The notes beneath the pieces are model-generated. The model saw only the letters and a list, made by a program, of their open reading frames with translations, was not told where the DNA came from and did not search any database. From an uncultured Actinomycetota bacterium (GTDB lineage: Bacteria; Actinomycetota; Thermoleophilia; RBG-16-64-13), in assembly GCA_963777945.1 (NCBI GenBank), contig CAVZSN010000011.1:164303-228302 (forward strand): a stretch of 64,000 bases of DNA, read 5' to 3'. Positions within the stretch are counted from its first letter, which is position 1. Each line of letters begins with the position of its first letter. Of this stretch, positions 18,533 through 60,101 are shown piece by piece. Made by a program: the position numbers and the translations under genes.

Positions 18533-18627
18533 ATACCTTGCTAGGGGAGCGTGTAGCTGAGAGTGTGGCCCGGCCACAGACCCTACGAACCTGATCTGGG
18601 TAATGCCAGCGAAGGGAAGTAACGGTG
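18533..18627 (+). ncRNA. TPP (thi-box) riboswitch
   Basis: GGGGAGC...GCTGAGAG-hairpin-ACCC..GAACCTGATCTGGGTAATGCCAGCGAAGGGAAG; begins just after the extended -10. Confidence 0.95.
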
Positions 18628-18722
18628 ATCCGCCTCAGCCTCGTCGCCGTCTGACGGCGCTCTGACGTCGACCTCGACAGATCGCCGCATCCACCCCCAG
18701 TCGCTCCGAAGAGGAGTGACGC

Positions 18723-33288: not shown

Positions 33289-36063
33289 CTACTCTATTGC
33301 TCGAGAGCGTCCAAAGCTTCCAGCACCGTCCCCAACTGGTCGATGAGTCGTCCGTATTCGGCCCAGTCGCCCTGGCGCTGCGCCTCGAGGGCCTGGCTGA
33401 ACAGAGAGTTGGCCAGAGCGATCAGAGCGTTCGCGTCGCTGGGGAGGGTGGTGCCGGTGGTCGGGCCGGTCGTCGTCGTGGTCCCGCCCGGGGTGGTGGT
33501 GGTCGTTCCTCCGGGCGTGGTCGTCGTGGTGCCGCCCGAGGTGGTGGTCGTCGTCCCACCCCCGGACGCCGAAGATCTTCGCGATCGCCTCTCCGAGCGT
33601 GGGCTCCATGACCACTTGATCCCCGTAGGCCACGATGACCCGGGTGAGCTCGGGGATGGGGCTCTCAGATGCCTGCAGGTACAGGGGCTCGAAGTACATG
33701 AGCGACGTGTTGATGGGTACCACCAGGAGGTTGCCGCGGATCACCTCGCTACCGGCCTGATCCCACAGCGTCAGCTGCGCCGAGATGTCGGGCTCGTTGG
33801 TGATGCGGGCCTCGATCTGGGCGGGGCCGAAGACCAGCTTATCCTTGGGGAAGTCGAGGGTGAGGAGCTTCCCGTAGTTCTCTCCGTCCTGGCGCGCCAC
33901 GAGCAATGAAGCCATGTTCTGTCTTGCTGAGTGGGGAGAAAGGCAAGATCAGGGCGAACTCCGGCTCCGTCTGGCCGGGGAGCGCCAGCACCTCGTAGTA
34001 CGGGACCACCGGGATCTGCTCGGAGGCGTAGATCTCCATGGGGATCTCCCAGACGTCCTCCTTGTTGTAGAAGATGATGGGGTCCTTCATGTGATACGTG
34101 GCGAGCACTGTCCGCCTGCACGCTGTACACGTCTTCCGGATACCGGATGTGGCTGCGAAGATCGGCCGGCATCTGATCGCCCGGCGTGAACAGGCCCTCG
34201 AACACCTTGCCCCAGGCGTTCGCGATGGGGTCCTGGGAGTCGATCTGGTAGAAGGTGACCTGGCCGTCGTAGGCGTTGACCACCACCTTGATGGGGTTGC
34301 GGATGTAGTTGATCCCACCCTCGTGTGGCTGGGAATACGGGAAGCGGTCGGATGGTGGTGTACGCGTCCCACATCCACACCAGCGACCCGTCGTCGCGGA
34401 GCACGAGATACGGGTCGCGGTCGTACTGGAGGAACGGCGCGAGCGCCTGCACTCTCTCCCGGATAGTCCTGCTGGTACATGATGCGCGACTCGTCCGTGA
34501 GTGAGTCGGAGAACATGATCTTGAGGGTCCTGAAGCGGAAGCTGAAGGCAAGCTGCCGCGAGCTTGCTTTTGATCGCCACCCCACCGTCGCCGGCGTAGG
34601 TGGACGTTTCATTCGTGTCGCCCTTGGGATAGTCGAACTCGGGACTGGTCGTCTTGACGACGACGTACTCGTTGCCCAACTCGCCGTAGTAGATCTCCGG
34701 CCTGGTGATCTTGAGGTCGGTGTCGGTACGCGGTGGGATGTCGCGCACCCACAGCAGGGGCAGGCCGTCGCCGCCGGCTTCGTTCACCGGGCTCATGACG
34801 AACCCGTAGCCGTGGGTGTAGGTGAGATGCTGGTTCACCCAGGTCTGCGACTGGGTCTGCAGCTGGCTCTGGTCGAGCTCCCGGGCGCTGATGAGCACCT
34901 GACGGTACTTGCCGTCGACGATGTAACGGTCGACATCGACGTCGGTGAACGAGTAGTAGAGGCGGATCTCCTGGATCTGGGAGTAGGTGGACAAGGCCGG
35001 CCGCGGTTCCCACAAGCGGACGCTGGCCAGAGTGAGCCTCGTTGTCCTTGATCTCGGCTGCCGTGAGGTCCGCGGTGGCGGGATGAGGGACGCTGGTGAT
35101 GTTGCCGAGTCCGAAGGCGTAGCTGGTGGCCTCGATGTTGTCCGCGATGTAGGGCGACTCGGCGGTGATCTCGTTGGGAGACACCTTGTACTGCTGGACG
35201 ATGGCCGGGTAGACCTTGCCTGCCAACGCCCAGGTGAGGAACATGACGGCGATGGCGATCGCCGGAAGCCTCCAGCCCTTGTAGCGGATGTTGGCGAGGA
35301 ACAGTACGGCGGCCACCAGCGAGACGATCGCCAGAAAATGCAGCACCGGCAGTGAGGCATGCACGTCGGTGTAGCTGGCGCCGAACACGACGCCCCTGGT
35401 GGAGTAGTCGAGGGCCCAGGTCTGGATCATGTAGTCTCCGGCCTTGGCCACCATCGCCGCCGCCAGGATCACCGACAGATGAGCCTTGACGTGCGGAGCC
35501 AGACGTATGCGGTTACCGGCATCGAGCACTAGGGCTCGGTCCGCCAGATAGACCAGGGCCGTGGCCACGAACGTGAACAGCAGGGCCACGCCCACGAAGT
35601 CCACGAGCATGTCCCAGACCGGAAGGGTGAACACGAAGAAGGAAGCGTCCTTGCCGAAGAGAGGATCGGTGTAGCCGAAGTCACCCCGGTTGAGGAAGAG
35701 CAGGACTTCTTCCCAGCGGCTGCTGTATGTGGCTCCGACGACGATGGAGAGCGCTATCGCTATCAGCAGCAGGAGTCGCCCGGGCCACTTGCGGTTGGGC
35801 TTGAGCTCGAGAACATCCTCGTCACCCTCGCTCTGCACGGCCAGCAACCGCGGGGAGATCTTGCGGGCCAACCATAGGTTGCCGTAGAGGATTACGAAGA
35901 AGATCACGCCGAAAAACAGGCCCACACATATTCTGGCCACCAGGGGTGTCCAGAACACCGTGGTCTGGCCCACCTCGGCGAACCACAGGTAGTCCGTCCA
36001 GATGCGGGAGACGAGGCCGCCCAGCCCTACCACTATGGCTGCGATGATGAGGACGATCACCAA
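33289..36063 (-). CDS. UPF0182 family membrane protein (frameshifted)
   Basis: WTDYLWFAEVG, DPLFGKDASFF, GASYTDVHA, YYSFTDVDVDRY, HLTYTHGYG, RPEIYYGE, PGPAQ-like FGPAQIE, RGNLLVVP. Confidence 0.93.
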
Positions 36064-37162: not shown

Positions 37163-37489
37163 ATGAGCGGTGGGAGTGTGCAAGAGGTCAACGCGCAGGA
37201 ATTCGATCAGATCGTTTCTACTTCGACCGTCCCTGTGGTAGCGGACTTCTGGGCTCCCTGGTGCGGTCCGTGCCGCATGGTGGGTCCCGTCCTGGAGAAG
37301 ATGGCCGCCGACCACACCGACAAGGTGAGCGTCATCAAGATCAACGTCGACCTCAACCAGGAACTGGCCGCACGCTACGGGATCATGAGTATCCCCACGG
37401 TCATCCTGTTCAAAGATGGGAAGCTGGACAAGCAGCTCATCGGCGCCCGGCAGCAGAAAGACTACGAGAAAGAGTTCGGGATCGCCTGA
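37163..37489 (+). CDS. trxA: Thioredoxin
   Basis: DFWAPWCGPCRMVGP, IMSIPTVILFKDG; AAGGAG RBS. Confidence 0.95.
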   Translation: MSGGSVQEVNAQEFDQIVSTSTVPVVADFWAPWCGPCRMVGPVLEKMAADHTDKVSVIKINVDLNQELAARYGIMSIPTVILFKDGKLDKQLIGARQQKDYEKEFGIA

Positions 37490-37490
37490 G

Positions 37491-37850
37491 ATGGAACGGA
37501 CTGATGGGGAACGCATGGTCATAGTGGGCTCGCGCCGCATGGACGCCTGGCGTGGCGGTGGTTGACGGCCTTCACTATCTCTGGAGGAGATAACGGGCTA
37601 TCTGAACGACGATCTCGCCACCCGCATGCAGGGGGATCGGCCTCTCCGCTACGTCGACATCGACGATGCGGAACTCGGGGAGTATCCCCTGCTGTCTGAG
37701 GCCGTGGCCGGCCCCGGGCGAATACCGCTGGTGCTGGTGGGCGATGAGGTCAAGTCGCCCACGGGCATAAGCATCTACTGGGTCGAAGAACAGCTTGCCG
37801 GCCTGGGGGTGGAGCCCTTCGCGGTCCCCGCGGTCAAGGGAGGGAGTTAG
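37491..37850 (+). CDS. Candidate selenoprotein, small thioredoxin-like (YuzD/DUF1462-like pattern), UGA at 37563-37565
   Basis: In-frame MERTDGERMVIVGSRRMDAWRGGG-TGA-RPSLSLEEITGYLNDDLATRMQG..LRYVDID..YPLL..IPLVLVGDEVK; hairpin TATCTC(T)-GGA-(G)GAGATA at 37576-37592. Confidence 0.7.
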
Positions 37851-38179: not shown

Positions 38180-38995
38180 ATGTACCCGGAGCTGTTCCAC
38201 ATAGGCGGATTCACCATGAACTCCTTCGGGCTCATGATGGCTCTAGCCTTCATCTCCGCCGGGTTCGTGGCCCACTGGCAGTTCAAGCAGCGCGGGGTCA
38301 GGCCTGACTTCATTTACGGACTGCTCATCGCCGCGGTCGTCGGTGGGCTGCTAGGCGCCAAGATCCACTACCTCATCCTCCACCCGGATGAATGGCCGGG
38401 CAACCTGCTGAGCGGGGGCGGCCTGGTATGGTTCGGTGGTCTCTTCGGAGCCATCCTGGGAGTAGTCATCGTCACGAAGCTCTCCAAGGAGCGACTGGCT
38501 GCGGTCATGGATGCCGGGGCTATCGCCGTGTCGGTGGGCTATGCGGTGGGGCGGATGGGCTGCTTTCTCCGCGGCGACGACTACGGGGTCCCCACAGACC
38601 TGCCCTGGGGCATCGCTTTCCCCAACGGTCTTCCTCCGACCACCGAGCGGGTGCATCCCACCCAGCTCTACGAGATCGCCGGCTCTCTGGTCATCTTCGC
38701 GCTGCTCACCTGGGTGTTCTCGCCGCGCTTCAAGCGCGAAGGCCCCTTGATCTTCGTGTACGCGGTGCTGGCCGGCATTGCGCGACTCTTGGTGGAGTTC
38801 ATCCGCACCAACGAACCGGTGGCCCTTGGTCTCACCTCGCAGCAGTGGATCGCCGTGGCCATGATCGTCGTGGGTGTGATCGGCGCCTGGTACTTCGGCA
38901 CCCGAGGCCGGTTGCGCCCGGTCATCGAACCCAAGTCCTCAAAGGCGGTGAAGTCGGCGCCTTCGGCTGCCGCCTCGCGCGGCGGCAAGAAGTAG
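38180..38995 (+). CDS. lgt: Prolipoprotein diacylglyceryl transferase
   Basis: MYPELF, GGLLGAKIHY, GLVWFGG, GRMGCFLRGDDYG, HPTQLYE, RLLVEFIR. Confidence 0.93.
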   Translation: MYPELFHIGGFTMNSFGLMMALAFISAGFVAHWQFKQRGVRPDFIYGLLIAAVVGGLLGAKIHYLILHPDEWPGNLLSGGGLVWFGGLFGAILGVVIVTKLSKERLAAVMDAGAIAVSVGYAVGRMGCFLRGDDYGVPTDLPWGIAFPNGLPPTTERVHPTQLYEIAGSLVIFALLTWVFSPRFKREGPLIFVYAVLAGIARLLVEFIRTNEPVALGLTSQQWIAVAMIVVGVIGAWYFGTRGRLRPVIEPKSSKAVKSAPSAAASRGGKK

Positions 38996-39024
38996 CCGGC
39001 CGCAGGCATGCAGGAGGTGGGGCT

Positions 39025-39579
39025 TTGAAGAGGATCACTTCGGTCAGAGCGGTGGTCGCCGCTCTATTAATCGCGGCGCTGCTCGTCGGGCTGGGATCCA
39101 TCCTCGCTTCGTGCGGATCGGAGCCGGCGGCCGGGACTTCGTCTGGCGTCACGAGCCCGGGGTCCGACACCGGTGGCGCCGGAGCCCCTCAGTTCTCCGG
39201 GGTCACCCTCGACGGTGACATCGTCACACTGGACCAGTTCCGAGGGAAGCCGCTCCTGCTGGTCTACATGACCAGCGGCTGACCGGCCTGCCGGGAGGAG
39301 ATGCCCGAACTCGATAGGTTCTATCGAGAGAGTCCCGACAAAGCGGCGGTCCTGGCAGTTGCCCCGCCCTCGAGCGAAGGTGGCATGCGCGAACTCATGG
39401 CCGAAGGGGGGTACTCGTTCCCGGTCATGATCGACGGTGGAGACGTCGGCTCTCAGTATGGAGTCCGGTACGTGCCCACTCTCTTCGTCATCGATGCGGA
39501 GGGCAAGGTCGCACAGAAGATCGTGGGCGCAGTCGACGCCAACCGGCTCTCCCAGCTGGTCGATGACCTTTCCGGCTGA
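39025..39579 (+). CDS. Candidate selenoprotein TlpA/ResA-like thiol-disulfide oxidoreductase lipoprotein (UxxC), UGA at 39280-39282
   Basis: AGGAGG + TTG 39025; lipobox ILASC; APQFSGVTLDG..LDQFRGKPLLLVYMTSG-TGA-PACREEMPEL; YGVRYVPTLFVID; perfect hairpin at 39310-39328. Confidence 0.85.
39310..39328 (+). promoter_or_regulatory. SECIS-like hairpin
   Basis: CTCGATAG-GTT-CTATCGAG, a perfect 8-bp stem; the G-initiated loop starts 35 nt after the UGA. Confidence 0.6.
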
Positions 39580-40277
39580 ACTCGGTCTCACCGCGTTCCT
39601 GGTGGCTCTCGCTGCTGGGGCCGCCAGCTTCCTCAGTCCGTGTGTCCTGCCCCTCCTTCCCGCCTACCTCTCGTTCGTCTCGGGGCTGAGCGTCGAAGAG
39701 GTGGAGAAGGGCGACAGGCGGGTGCTGTGGAGCACCTTGGGCTTCGTTCTCGGGTTCTCCATCGTCTTCACGATCCTGGGCGCGGGTTTCTCCTATCTCG
39801 GCGGACTGAGCGAATCAGCGGGTGCTGGAGATCGTGGCGGGGGCCCTTCTCATCGTCCTGGGTGCCATCATCGCCGGAGCGACCGCGCCCTCTTTCATGC
39901 AACGAGACATGAGACCGTTCCTGGCGAAGGCCCCCCGGGGACCTGCCGGCGCGGTGATAGTGGGCATCGCATTCGCTCTCGGCTGGACTCCCTGCGTGGG
40001 CCCGGTCCTGGGTTCGATCCTGACCCTCGCGGCCTCGGGCAGCGACCCGGCGGCCGGAGCCGCTCTTCTCTTCGTGTACTCGTTGGGTCTGGGTATCCCG
40101 TTTCTCATCGCGGGACTTTTCGTGGGCAAAGCCCTGAGGGCCTTCGCGCGCATACGGCGTCATCTACGGACCATCCAGATCGTATGCGGAGTGCTGCTCA
40201 TCATCTACGGGGCGCTGCTCATCGGTGGCCAGTTCGGCTGGCTGGGGGATCGCTTGTCGGGCTGGATCATCTGGTAG
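39563..40277 (+). CDS. ccdA: Cytochrome c biogenesis / disulfide transporter CcdA (frameshift near 39815)
   Basis: ASFLSPCVLPLLPAYLSF and AFALGWTPCVGPVL, YSLGLGIPFL. Confidence 0.92.
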
Positions 40278-56382: not shown

Positions 56383-57822
<1,440 letters not shown>

Positions 57823-57824
<2 letters not shown>

Positions 57825-57891
57825 CCGCTGTACCCGCCTCCGACTCGCTTATGCGGGTACGCAAAGGCTCCCTCAGGCGGGTACAGCGGCT
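57823..57891. terminator. 17-bp perfect inverted repeat between convergent genes
   Basis: AGCCGCTGTACCCGCCT (57823-57839) / AGGCGGGTACAGCGGCT (57875-57891). Confidence 0.55.
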
Positions 57892-57920
57892 CCTCACCTA
57901 CTGGTCGGCGCGCGGCGACC

Positions 57921-59578
57921 TTAGTCATCGTCGGGAGTGCCCGCCGTGGCAAGGCGTACAGGTCGCCGTCGCGATACCCCGATTTGGTGGCAGCTGGTGC
58001 AACTGAGACGATGCTCGCCTGACGGCATGTGTTCTCCCACCGGGGATGGCGGAAGGTCGACGGCTCCCACGCCTTGGTCGTGTGGCACGATGCGCACTTG
58101 GTGAGCCCCCCGTGCTTGGTCCCGTGACAAGATACGCAGGTTGAGCCGACCTTCTTGAACGGAGTCCCGTGGCAGTTGGCGCACGAGAGGCTTGCATGGG
58201 CCCCTGTCAGCTTGAACGGATGCGTGAAATTGACATCGCTCCAGGACGTCGGGGTGTGGCAGGAGGCGCAGTTGGTCAACCCTTTGTGCTGATCGCTGTG
58301 GCAGGAGATGCAGGCCGGGTTGGCCGACGGGAACTGGGTGCCGGGGATGTTGGCCACTCCCGGCTTACTCTCGTGACAGTCGGCGCAGGTGAGGTCCTCG
58401 TGGCCGCCTGAGATCGGGAACGGATGCTCGAAAGTCACGTCGCTCCAGGACGTGGGGGTGTGACAGGAGCCGCAATCGGTCAGCCCCCCGTGCTGATCGC
58501 TGTGGCAGGAGATGCAGGCCGGGTCGGCCGATGGGAACTGGGTGCCGGGGATGTTGGCCACTCCCGGCTTGCTCTCGTGACAGTCGGCGCAGGTGAGGTC
58601 CTCGTGGCCGCCTGAGATCGGGAACGGGTGCTCGAAGGTCACGTCGTTCCAGGACGTGGGGGTGTGACAGGAGCCGCAATCGGTCAGTCCCCCGTGTTGA
58701 TCAGTGTGGCAGGAGATGCAGGCCGGGTCGGCTTCAGGCAGAGTGGTCCCCGGTATGTTCTCCACCCCCGGTTTGCTCACATGGCAGTCGGTGCAGTCAA
58801 GGCCGGCATGGGCGCCTTCGCGCGGGAACGGATGTTGGTCACCGGCCGAGCCCCAACTGGTGAGACTGTGGCAGGAACTGCACTCGCCCCTGGGCTCGTG
58901 CGGGGGAGTGTGGCAATACGAGCACTGTCCGGAGGCGGTGGTGCCGTCGTGGCAGGCCAGGCACGATGACATTGCCGCGGGGTCCTTGTAGGCGAGGGGC
59001 GGGACGCCGCGGTGAACGAGGCGGACATGGCAGTCCAAGCACAGCTCGTCGGCGTGAGCCTCGTGCGAGAACGGGACGTTGCCGAGAGTCATGTCGGCGG
59101 GGGTCTCGTGACACCGGAAGCAGCTGGAGTTCGGTATCTCCCTGGTGACCGCGAGCGGTGACTCGGAATGGCCCTCTCCGGAGTGCTCCGTCAGGTGTAC
59201 CCAGATCTCTCGGAACGAGAAGAGCTTGGTCTCGATATAGGACAGAGCGCCCGGAGGAATGTGACAGTCGCGGCATTCCGCAGCAGGCGAAGCGTGGGCT
59301 GAGTCCTGCCAACTGGTGTTGTACGGATCCATCTCGTGGCAGGAGACACAGAAGGGACTTGCGCTCGTGTAGTGAGCTGTGACAAAAGAGGCGATGATCA
59401 GGATGACGATCAGCGCACCAGCGATGGAGAGTCCGATTATCCAGCGCCGCCGTCGTCTTCTCGGAATCGGCGCCTCGGTTTCTGCGGGCGGCGGTCCAGA
59501 GGATGGCGCCGCATCGCCGGCTGTTGCGTCGGCCGAGATGCCATCGTTCAACGGAATTCCGTCTTCGTCCACGTGCAC
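57921..59578 (-). CDS. Membrane-anchored multiheme cytochrome c (about 21 CXXCH); start uncertain
   Basis: RRRRRRW + TM helix, NapC/NirT-like start (CVSCHEM..YNTSW..SAH..CRDCH); 19 CXXCH in frame, plus CTSCH and CTPCH in shifted frames at the 3' end. Confidence 0.92.
58225..58800 (-). repeat. 204-bp (68-aa, three-heme) tandem coding repeat, about 2.8 units
   Basis: GCAGGAGATGCAGGCCGGG recurs at 58301, 58505 and 58709; units are near-identical at DNA level. Confidence 0.9.
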
Positions 59579-59761
59579 CCCCGGGGGATCCGTCAGTCGA
59601 GAGACTCGACCCCCACACTCGGCTCGGGCCGACCCGCTTGTGCCCGGTGCAAACTGCGGATAGTGCATCACCATACCATACATACACTGCGTGTCCGCAA
59701 GATGCGGAGACGGAGCAATCCGGGCAAGCTCCGCTCGTTTGGTGGGCTCAGCAGGTGCAGA

Positions 59762-59790
59762 TTGACGTCTCTCCCGTCGCGGGATACCAT
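59762..59790 (+). promoter_or_regulatory. Sigma70-type promoter for the cob operon
   Basis: TTGACG (59762-59767), 17-bp spacer, TACCAT (59785-59790). Confidence 0.75.
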
Positions 59791-59799
59791 GGCTCGGCA

Positions 59800-59945
59800 A
59801 TCTCTCAGATCCGCGGGAACCCGGTGGGATTCCGGGACTGCCCCGCAACTGTGACCGCGGACGAAAGCCGCTGCAAGCCACTGCCCCTGGGCGGGAAGGC
59901 GCGGCCGGTAGGATGAAGCGGAAGCCAGGATACCGCGATGAGAGG
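59800..59945 (+). ncRNA. Cobalamin riboswitch
   Basis: GGGAAcccGGTG.GATTCCggg.CTGCCCCGCAACTGTGA, GCCACTG..GGGAAGGC, AAGCCAGGATACC; upstream of cobT. Confidence 0.93.
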
Positions 59946-60101
59946 ACGTCGCTACTAGGCCTCGCGGGAGGGCTCAGGTGGTCTTCTTCTCTGTACGTTT
60001 TCGGGCCTCCGCCACGCTGCGGGCTTTCCTGCTGACGCGCAGAGGCGCCTCCTCCCCCCCGACGGCACCCACCCCGACCCGCTCGTGATGGAGGACACCC
60101 G

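Follow-up and report, generated by a model that had tools for sequence, protein, structure and literature searches.

A TGA-interrupted TlpA/ResA-like lipoprotein gene of uncultured sediment Actinomycetota is very probably a selenoprotein gene

A stretch of 64,000 nucleotides (nt) from an uncultured Actinomycetota bacterium of the class Thermoleophilia (assembly GCA_963777945.1, contig CAVZSN010000011.1, forward-strand positions 164,303 to 228,302; hereafter the window) carries a gene for a thioredoxin-fold lipoprotein of the TlpA/ResA type that is interrupted by an in-frame TGA. This gene, termed Sec-tlpA, is with high confidence a genuine selenoprotein gene, in which the TGA would be read as selenocysteine (Sec, U) within the active site of the product, Sec-TlpA. 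The TGA at 39280-39282 is in frame with the TTG start at 39025, and the frame remains open to the stop at 39577-39579. The standard list of open reading frames (ORFs) cuts the gene into 38392-39282 and 39301-39579, a split that had already been remarked on in a first-pass annotation of the window made from the letters alone. The gene and its parts are the following.

39012-39017, + strand: ribosome-binding site AGGAGG, 7 nt before the TTG start at 39025, read from the sequence
39025-39579, + strand: complete gene for a Sec-TlpA/ResA-like lipoprotein of 184 residues, U86 counted, with a TTG start and a TGA stop
39025-39114, + strand: lipoprotein signal peptide, with an n-region containing K2, R3 and R8, a hydrophobic core and a lipobox
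39103-39114, + strand: lipobox L27-A-S-C30, read from the sequence
39280-39282, + strand: predicted UGA selenocysteine codon, U86, in the place of the nucleophilic first Cys of CxxC
39289-39291, + strand: resolving Cys89 (TGC) of the U-P-A-C motif, invariant (TGC in 16 and TGT in 2 of 18 orthologs)
39475-39477, + strand: Pro151, the cis-proline of the thioredoxin fold (Y-V-P-T), invariant in the alignments and aligned with VP(D/E)T of relatives in the PDB
39577-39579, + strand: true stop TGA, with no selenocysteine insertion sequence (SECIS) after it

The in-frame TGA that the first-pass annotation had placed at the first Cys of a CxxC motif (SG-U-PAC-REEMP) is present at that position, and with TGA translated as U its neighbourhood reads ...LLLVYMTSG-U-PAC-REEMPELDRFYRE.... 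The fold homology said to lie on both sides of it is a single Pfam Redoxin/AhpC-TSA match over residues 52-177 (E 4.5e-20 / 4.9e-19), which spans U86. The N-terminus reads LKRITSVRAVVAALLIAALLVGLGSILAS-C30-GS. The lipobox proposed there, ILASC, was found as ILAS-C30 and is conserved, and from it the product is predicted to be exported. In most orthologs the lipobox Cys is followed by G-S or G-G, and the protein has the characteristics of a bacterial lipoprotein, with lgt encoded upstream.

The assembly that contains the window consists of 11 contigs with a total length of 2.57 Mb, a GC content of 65.6% and an estimated completeness of 59% (CheckM-type). A six-frame search identified the gene in 38 of 40 related genomes, and the best matches, at 38-88% identity, contain exactly one in-frame TGA across the genus of the window and, within its family, in no fewer than 12 other genera. 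Extraction and translation of 20 orthologs placed the TGA in the same alignment column in 19 of them, always in the context x-U-x-x-C. The C-terminal half of the orthologs is conserved, the cis-Pro included. The sole Cys ortholog among the 20 (L027) reads WCGPC and lacks the hairpin described below; it comes from a near-complete genome (G021, 96%) in which SelB was not detected. Fifteen of the 19 TGA-bearing orthologs also terminate in TGA, as does the Cys ortholog, and TGA is thus an ordinary stop codon in this lineage. Cys homologs aligned at the TGA, which had been suggested as a check, are at hand both among database homologs and among PDB chains, where U86 falls on the first Cys of WCxxC. 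The gene is real and is absent from the protein databases searched: among 5.8 billion proteins no U-containing full-length entry was found, only Cys forms.

Two adjacent RNA helices follow the TGA within the coding sequence.

39292-39307, + strand: candidate SECIS helix 1, up to 6 bp with a GARR tetraloop, arms 39292-39297 and 39302-39307
39310-39328, + strand: candidate SECIS helix 2, a perfect 8-bp stem CUCGAUAG/CUAUCGAG with the loop GUU, encoding L-D-R-F-Y-R-(E)

Helix 2 is the 8-bp hairpin with a G-led loop 35 nt downstream that the first-pass annotation had described. In the DNA it is CTCGATAG-GTT-CTATCGAG, with arms at 39310-39317 and 39321-39328; the stem begins 27 nt past the UGA and the loop G, at 39318, lies 35 nt past its A. 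The published model of the bacterial SECIS (bSECIS) has a stem of 4-16 bp and a loop of 3-9 nt that starts with G and then G/U, 16-37 nt from the UGA (PMC13188914). The comparison with bacterial SECIS elements that had been recommended came out in favour of the hairpin, which fits this model with 8 bp, a 3-nt loop starting G-U and a distance of 35 nt, and which is further supported by the fixation of synonymous sites and by a compensatory change. Aligned over the 72 nt that surround the TGA, 19 orthologs show helix 2 to be 96% paired, with next to no variation in its sequence. The codons for E-L-D-R-F-Y-R are fixed (GAA 14/14, CTC 17/17, GAT 17/18, AGG 16/16, TTC 17/17, TAT 17/18 and CGA 16/17), whereas the conserved Gly, Pro, Leu, Arg and Val residues in the rest of the gene are spread over 3-5 synonymous codons. 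Four of the fixed codons make up only a minor share of those used for their amino acid in this genome (GAT 25%, AGG 10%, TAT 21% and CGA 10.5%), and the chance of the exact codon string of helix 2, computed from the genome codon frequencies, is ~5e-5. The fixation of these minor codons argues for selection on the RNA. Two paralogs in one related genome (L120 and L121 of G014) have both GAT to GGT and TAT to TAC, a compensatory replacement of an A-U pair by a G-C pair. These two copies are identical over the compared stretch of active site and hairpin, and some members of the family have two or three TGA-containing TlpA paralogs.

Helix 1 has the tetraloop GAGA in the window, and in this genus it retains only the outer 4 bp plus one G-U. 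Among the 19 orthologs it shows compensatory changes at three pairs. Across 82 distinct sequences 78% of its cells are paired, as compared with 21-50% in slid registers, a value that none of 1000 shuffles reached, and its inner pairs exchange between C-G, A-U and G-C. Both helices are missing from Cys-type TlpA-like genes of other families in the class and from the genome's own Cys paralog.

No single test was stronger than an unbiased scan of 241 million metagenome records in which the 19-nt hairpin alone served as the query. The scan returned 76 occurrences: 72 in a TlpA context, three unrelated chance matches and one at a contig edge. An in-frame TGA lies exactly 30 nt upstream in all 72 TlpA-context occurrences (...FWASW-U-xxC...), and TGC in none. 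Two other searches gave little. A scan of the window at the Rfam gathering threshold found nothing at the Sec-TlpA locus, a result that is uninformative for a lineage-specific SECIS inside a gene, and a genome-wide scan for in-frame TGA codons with coding flanks, based on GC content at third codon positions, picked up gene junctions for the most part and did not recover the known case.

The selA, selB, selC and selD genes, for which the first-pass annotation had called, form a complete set in this genome. SelA (488 bits), selB (304 bits) and selD (213 bits) all score above their NCBIfam cut-offs. SelA and selB lie side by side on contig 3, and the program aragorn located a tRNA-Sec gene (anticodon tca) ~60 nt after selB, at C3:252329-252423. 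The selD gene contains a Sec codon of its own (SHGSG-U-ACK, of the form SGUxCK). SelB also scores above the cut-off in 15 TGA-bearing genomes of the family.

The AlphaFold2 (AF2) model of Sec-TlpA comprises a helix at residues 7-26, a disordered linker at residues 29-49 and a thioredoxin-like domain, with predicted local distance difference test (pLDDT) values >94 over residues 50-180. The best Foldseek matches are ResA structures (4nmu and 1st9; template modelling (TM) scores of 0.85-0.91, root-mean-square deviation of 1.5 Å), followed by Etrx lipoproteins, StoA and DsbF, and the best 50 matches are all ResA, TlpA-like, DsbE, StoA, Etrx or DsbF proteins. By sequence, the nearest solved structures are two thioredoxin-family proteins of Geobacter metallireducens, and next come ResA, the pneumococcal Etrx1/2 lipoproteins, StoA, M. 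tuberculosis MPT53 and DsbF. In alignments with PDB chains, U86 takes the place of the first Cys in WCPYC/WCPPC, and E92 and P94 match the Glu and Pro of the conserved motif C-x-x-C-x-x-E-x-P, such that U86-P-A-C89-R-E-E92-M-P94 corresponds to CPYCRDEMP and CPPCREEIP. None of the NCBIfam family cut-offs was reached: the scores were 70.8 of 170 bits for ResA (NF002854), 35.3 of 123 for DsbE/CcmG (TIGR00385) and 26.1 of 230 for TlpA (NF047696). The ResA-like WAxxUGC selenoprotein model (NF041054) gave 23.4 bits against a cut-off of 300, the motif here being (S/W)-U-x-x-C. Sec-TlpA is thus not an equivalog of ResA, DsbE or TlpA, though it is predicted to work as these proteins do.

The gene order around Sec-tlpA is trxA, a small ORF with an in-frame TGA, a gene for an FmdB-type Zn-ribbon protein, lgt, Sec-tlpA and ccdA, and then rpsF-ssb-rpsR-rplI. 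The genes that bear on its function are listed here.

37163-37489, + strand: trxA (WCGPC), Pfam Thioredoxin E 2.5e-29, likely the cytoplasmic electron donor to CcdA
37515-37850, + strand: small ORF with an in-frame TGA at 37563-37565 (..WRGGG-U-RPSLSLEEI..), no Pfam match
38180-38995, + strand: lgt, prolipoprotein diacylglyceryl transferase, Pfam LGT E 3e-52, directly upstream of Sec-tlpA
39563-40277, + strand: ccdA (DsbD_TM family), its start overlapping the end of Sec-tlpA by 17 nt, Pfam DsbD_TM on both of its pieces

The arrangement is conserved. Of the 20 loci examined, 17 have ccdA after the tlpA gene; outside the window, 15 of 19 have lgt before it. The order lgt, tlpA, ccdA recurs in metagenome contigs. 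The small ORF at 37515-37850 is probably the second selenoprotein of the cluster. Its TGA is kept in 15 relatives (E <= 1e-20), in genome G029 and in a fragmented match in G002, and a canonical hairpin, CUAUCUC-UGGAG-GAGAUAG, begins 12 nt past its UGA. A syntenic Cys ortholog of Sec-tlpA occurs in a metagenome contig (P0002, JGI sample 3300075153), where it stands between lgt and ccdA with the same 17-nt overlap. On that contig the small ORF, and with it the second Sec candidate, is missing from its place between trxA and the Zn-ribbon gene, and a PF11823 Se_S_carrier-like gene lies between the UPF0182 gene and an MBL-fold gene. The Cys form together with the missing small ORF fits a genome without Sec. 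Elsewhere in the window, two riboswitches score above the Rfam gathering threshold, a cobalamin riboswitch at 59760-59954 (+, 91 bits) and a TPP (thiamine pyrophosphate) riboswitch at 18533-18634 (+, 68 bits).

The following course of events is proposed. Translation would start at the TTG at 39025, and at the UGA at 39280 a downstream mRNA element, made up of the short covarying helix at 39292-39307 and then the invariant 8-bp GUU hairpin at 39310-39328, would recruit SelB with Sec-tRNA(Sec). Selenocysteine would be inserted and translation would proceed to the stop at 39577. The product would be exported, lipidated by Lgt at Cys30 and relieved of its signal peptide, so that a ResA/TlpA-fold domain with the active site U86-P-A-C89 would remain attached to the cytoplasmic membrane on its outer side. 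Electrons would pass from cytoplasmic thioredoxin to the membrane protein CcdA, which would reduce the U86/C89 selenenylsulfide. The U86 selenolate would then attack substrate disulfides outside the membrane, and C89 would resolve the resulting selenenylsulfide. The lipobox signal peptide and the overlapping ccdA are both observed and both conserved; from them we infer the topology and the electron path, that is, an extracytoplasmic protein fed by CcdA.

As to the substrate, the CXXCH disulfide of apocytochromes c is tentatively favoured, which would give Sec-TlpA a role equivalent to that of CcmG. A locus for System I cytochrome c maturation is present in the genome (G000 C8:59000-63200; L213), encoding CcmF with CcmF_C, an ATP-binding cassette (ABC) ATPase (ccmA) and CcmC, and adjoining an Rrf2 regulator. 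No thioredoxin-like gene was found among the ORFs scanned in this locus. ResB was not found anywhere in the genome, and System II was dismissed as a candidate when two CcsA-family matches turned out to be the CcmF and CcmC of the System I locus. The only other TlpA-like protein in the genome is a 444-residue MauE/DoxX-Redoxin/AhpC-TSA fusion (WCPEC; C10:331418-332752, minus strand; L214:4419-5753). A multihaem cytochrome is encoded in the window at ~57800-59700 (minus strand) by a 633-residue frame in which CXXCH occurs 19 times; on contig C8, a further five open frames contain 3-7 copies of the motif each. The CcmG-like role is favoured because a System I locus without a thioredoxin-like gene, multihaem cytochromes and the lack of any other CcdA-paired TlpA-like protein occur together in this genome. 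The location of the ccm locus on another contig than Sec-tlpA speaks against it.

Nearly as likely as the CcmG-like role is that the CcdA-fed lipoprotein acts as a general surface reductant of the Etrx type, which would supply extracytoplasmic Msr, peroxide or metal detoxification or other lipoproteins, and not cytochrome c maturation. The neighbours of Sec-tlpA, lgt and ribosomal-protein genes and not ccm genes, are in keeping with such a role. The pneumococcal Etrx1/2 proteins, which are CcdA-paired, are among the best matches in both sequence and fold (PMC3914529), and the score against the DsbE/CcmG family model is far below its cut-off. In addition, the presence of up to three TGA paralogs in related genomes suggests several substrates. 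These points are offset by the System I genes without a CcmG-type gene in their locus, by the many CXXCH proteins and by the absence from the genome of another TlpA-like protein paired with CcdA. The top fold match, moreover, is ResA, and no Msr gene was seen beside Sec-tlpA.

Several observations weigh against the reading of Sec-tlpA as a selenoprotein gene with helix 2 as its SECIS, and they are taken up here with the alternatives on which they bear. The folding energy of the 81-nt stretch is unexceptional (z = -0.91 against shuffles); energy is uninformative at 65.6% GC, and the significance of the hairpin therefore rests on comparison across genomes. The SECIS hairpins of the small ORF and of selD, which were compared with that of Sec-TlpA by hand, start 12-13 nt after the UGA as against 27 nt for helix 2, and SelB could contact either helix 1 or helix 2. 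One ortholog of the same genus (L032, G008:C8:166169-166630) retains the TGA and has a degenerate helix 2 (CTCGACAAGTTCTACCAGG). Its flanking genes are 79-92% identical to their counterparts and its TlpA only 46%. Either this copy evolves fast and uses a different SECIS, or the gene is decaying. Loss of Sec from G008 was considered and is unlikely, since the TGA of the neighbouring small ORF is retained and the genome thus probably still decodes Sec.

A further observation of this kind is a Cys paralog on a metagenome contig (P0003, WCGAC, L117:3001-3456) that keeps both helices. This gene lies four genes downstream of a Sec copy (L117:424-972, annotated as fragments of 83 and 73 residues), past ccdA and a DUF4349 gene, and was rejected as a Cys ortholog on account of its position beside the Sec copy and its intact hairpin. 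P0003 and its Sec neighbour are identical at 28 of 30 nt in the hairpin window and at 14-21 of 30 nt elsewhere. The hairpin is therefore not strictly tied to the TGA. The simplest reading of P0003 is a recent change from TGA to TGC that left a fossil SECIS.

It is accordingly to be asked whether helix 2 serves some purpose in addition to, or instead of, the recruitment of SelB, such as a membrane-targeting pause or mRNA stability, with helix 1 as the true SECIS. This is unlikely. The conservation of helix 2 in P0003, far above that of the rest of the gene, would be explained by such a role, and helix 1 starts 9-10 nt past the UGA, close to the 12-13 nt of the genome's other two SECIS hairpins. 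Like those hairpins it carries GGAG or GAGR in its loop, and it is strong in the Sec-TlpA genes of other families in the class. P0003 may simply be the recent conversion described above, however, and helix 2 was preceded by TGA and never by TGC in every one of its TlpA-context occurrences in the metagenome scan. Helix 2 also fits the bSECIS model better, helix 1 being weak in this genus and 13-15 nt from the UGA, short of the 16 nt of the model. The apex of helix 2, A-G-GUU-C-U, resembles the apex of the selD element of this genome, A-GGAC-U; that of the E. coli fdhF SECIS is A-GGUC-U.

The downstream signal differs in Sec-TlpA-like genes from other families of the class (L127 in G034 and L133 in G029). 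These have a strong 7-bp first helix (GCCGGCG-GGAAG-CGCCGGC and GGCGGGA-GGC-UCCCGCC) and an unrelated second hairpin. The occurrence of a first and a second helix in these genes as well suggests that the tandem layout is older than the invariant 19-mer. A more speculative and rather improbable proposal is that the signal of the present clade is a distinct, modular SECIS, in which a mini-helix compacts the spacer and a distant invariant CUCGAUAG-GUU-CUAUCGAG dictates the peptide ELDRFYR, perhaps with a second role such as pacing the translation of an exported lipoprotein. The second role is considered because the hairpin is intact in the Cys paralog.

It is very improbable that the UGA is read through as an amino acid other than Sec, whether by near-cognate Trp or Cys insertion or by a lineage-specific reassignment. 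Six TGA-bearing relatives without SelB at E <= 1e-60 in their assemblies are a point for readthrough and belong with the observations that weigh against Sec decoding. Completeness is no more than 65-84% in five of these assemblies, and the sixth has 7% contamination, whereas the near-complete genome without SelB has Cys and not TGA at this position. Readthrough or reassignment is also at odds with the complete selABCD set of this genome, with the use of TGA to end the same gene in 15 of the 19 TGA-bearing orthologs and with a downstream element that fits the SECIS model.

The assembly itself contains clear errors. The ccdA gene is split by a 1-nt frameshift at ~39800-39830, which also counts against the proposed course of events; the frameshift occurs in this assembly only, and the gene is in frame in relatives L016-L018. 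The selD gene (G000 C7:74985-75774) is likewise frameshifted here and in frame in relatives. The UPF0182 ORF (34609-36063, minus strand) runs off into nonsense. The three breaks look like long-read indel errors and not like real pseudogenes, and the ccdA frameshift is probably an assembly error because selD and other genes are also frameshifted. That the TGA is a nonsense mutation or another assembly error, and the locus a pseudogene or two small genes, as the indels, the 59% completeness for 11 contigs and the split made by gene callers might suggest, can be regarded as effectively refuted by conservation across genomes, since the same TGA recurs in independent assemblies, in one alignment column across 19 orthologs and in 72 metagenome contigs, conservation continues past it and takes in the cis-Pro, a split would cut the thioredoxin fold through its active site and the errors observed are indels and not substitutions. 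Base-call error at the TGA is excluded by the same recurrence; judged from these alignments, one substitution error repeated across dozens of independent assemblies is not credible.

Selenoproteins of this general kind have been known for some time. Catalogues have listed UxxC thiol:disulfide selenoproteins, both TlpA-like and Prx-like, since 2004-2005 (PMC13188914 Table 1, PMC1088965, PMC1794560). The first-pass annotation had called the product an extracytoplasmic selenoenzyme and uncommon; both the selenoenzyme reading and the word uncommon stand, with the amendment that the kind is already present in selenoproteome catalogues. Like Sec-TlpA, the catalogued UxxC families have Sec for the first Cys of CxxC in a TlpA/Redoxin/AhpC-TSA fold, an in-gene SECIS directly downstream and widespread Cys homologs. 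Compared by description, they come mostly from Deltaproteobacteria and marine metagenomes, whereas Sec-TlpA represents a sediment and wetland branch in Actinomycetota, and it differs from them in its lipobox, its linkage to lgt and ccdA and its lineage-specific invariant 19-nt hairpin. The WAxxUGC ResA-like selenoprotein is also a Sec-containing ResA/TlpA-like protein, but its motif is U-G-C in place of U-x-x-C and its architecture differs. With respect to the bSECIS consensus, the signal described here differs in its tandem arrangement with a covarying mini-helix, in a spacing near the upper limit and in its extreme invariance across genera.

Among Cys-containing proteins, ResA (Bacillus subtilis/anthracis; 1st9, 1su9, 4nmu) and CcmG/DsbE are apocytochrome c disulfide reductases fed by CcdA or DsbD. 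Sec-TlpA shares with ResA, its best fold match, the C-x-x-C-x-x-E-x-P motif and the cis-Pro, and would share the tether at the outer face and the CcdA partner. It differs in having Sec for Cys and a predicted lipid anchor in place of a transmembrane helix, and in being unlinked to resBC or ccm genes. Etrx1 and Etrx2 of Streptococcus pneumoniae (4hqs, 4hqz, 2yp6; PMC3914529) are likewise lipoprotein-anchored, TlpA-like reductases that work with CcdA, in a monoderm; they have a Cys active site and feed the adjacent MsrAB2, whereas Sec-TlpA has UxxC and no adjoining msr gene. Specific to the present case are the lipoprotein, lgt and ccdA linkage in a family of sediment Actinomycetota, the tandem-helix signal that fixes ELDRFYR and the lack of a full-length database entry. 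The finding is solid and useful for annotation, and it would not surprise a selenoprotein specialist.

The extracytoplasmic selenoenzymes that have been studied well, namely periplasmic formate dehydrogenases and [NiFeSe] hydrogenases, are loaded with cofactors and exported by the Tat pathway. To this short list Sec-TlpA adds a thiol reductase that is predicted to be exported by the Sec pathway and anchored by lipid. The invariant hairpin is a clear case of an RNA signal within a coding region that holds a peptide motif of seven residues constant from genus to genus, and synonymous sites with it. It is also a simple and specific probe for the Sec-TlpA family, with 72 true as against three chance matches in the metagenomes scanned. 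As long as the gene is annotated in two pieces, a clade of Actinomycetota from sediments, wetlands and bioreactors appears to be without an active outward-facing reductase, and its dependence on selenium is under-counted. If Sec-TlpA is indeed the CcmG equivalent, the production of multihaem cytochromes in these anaerobes would be tied to the supply of selenium.

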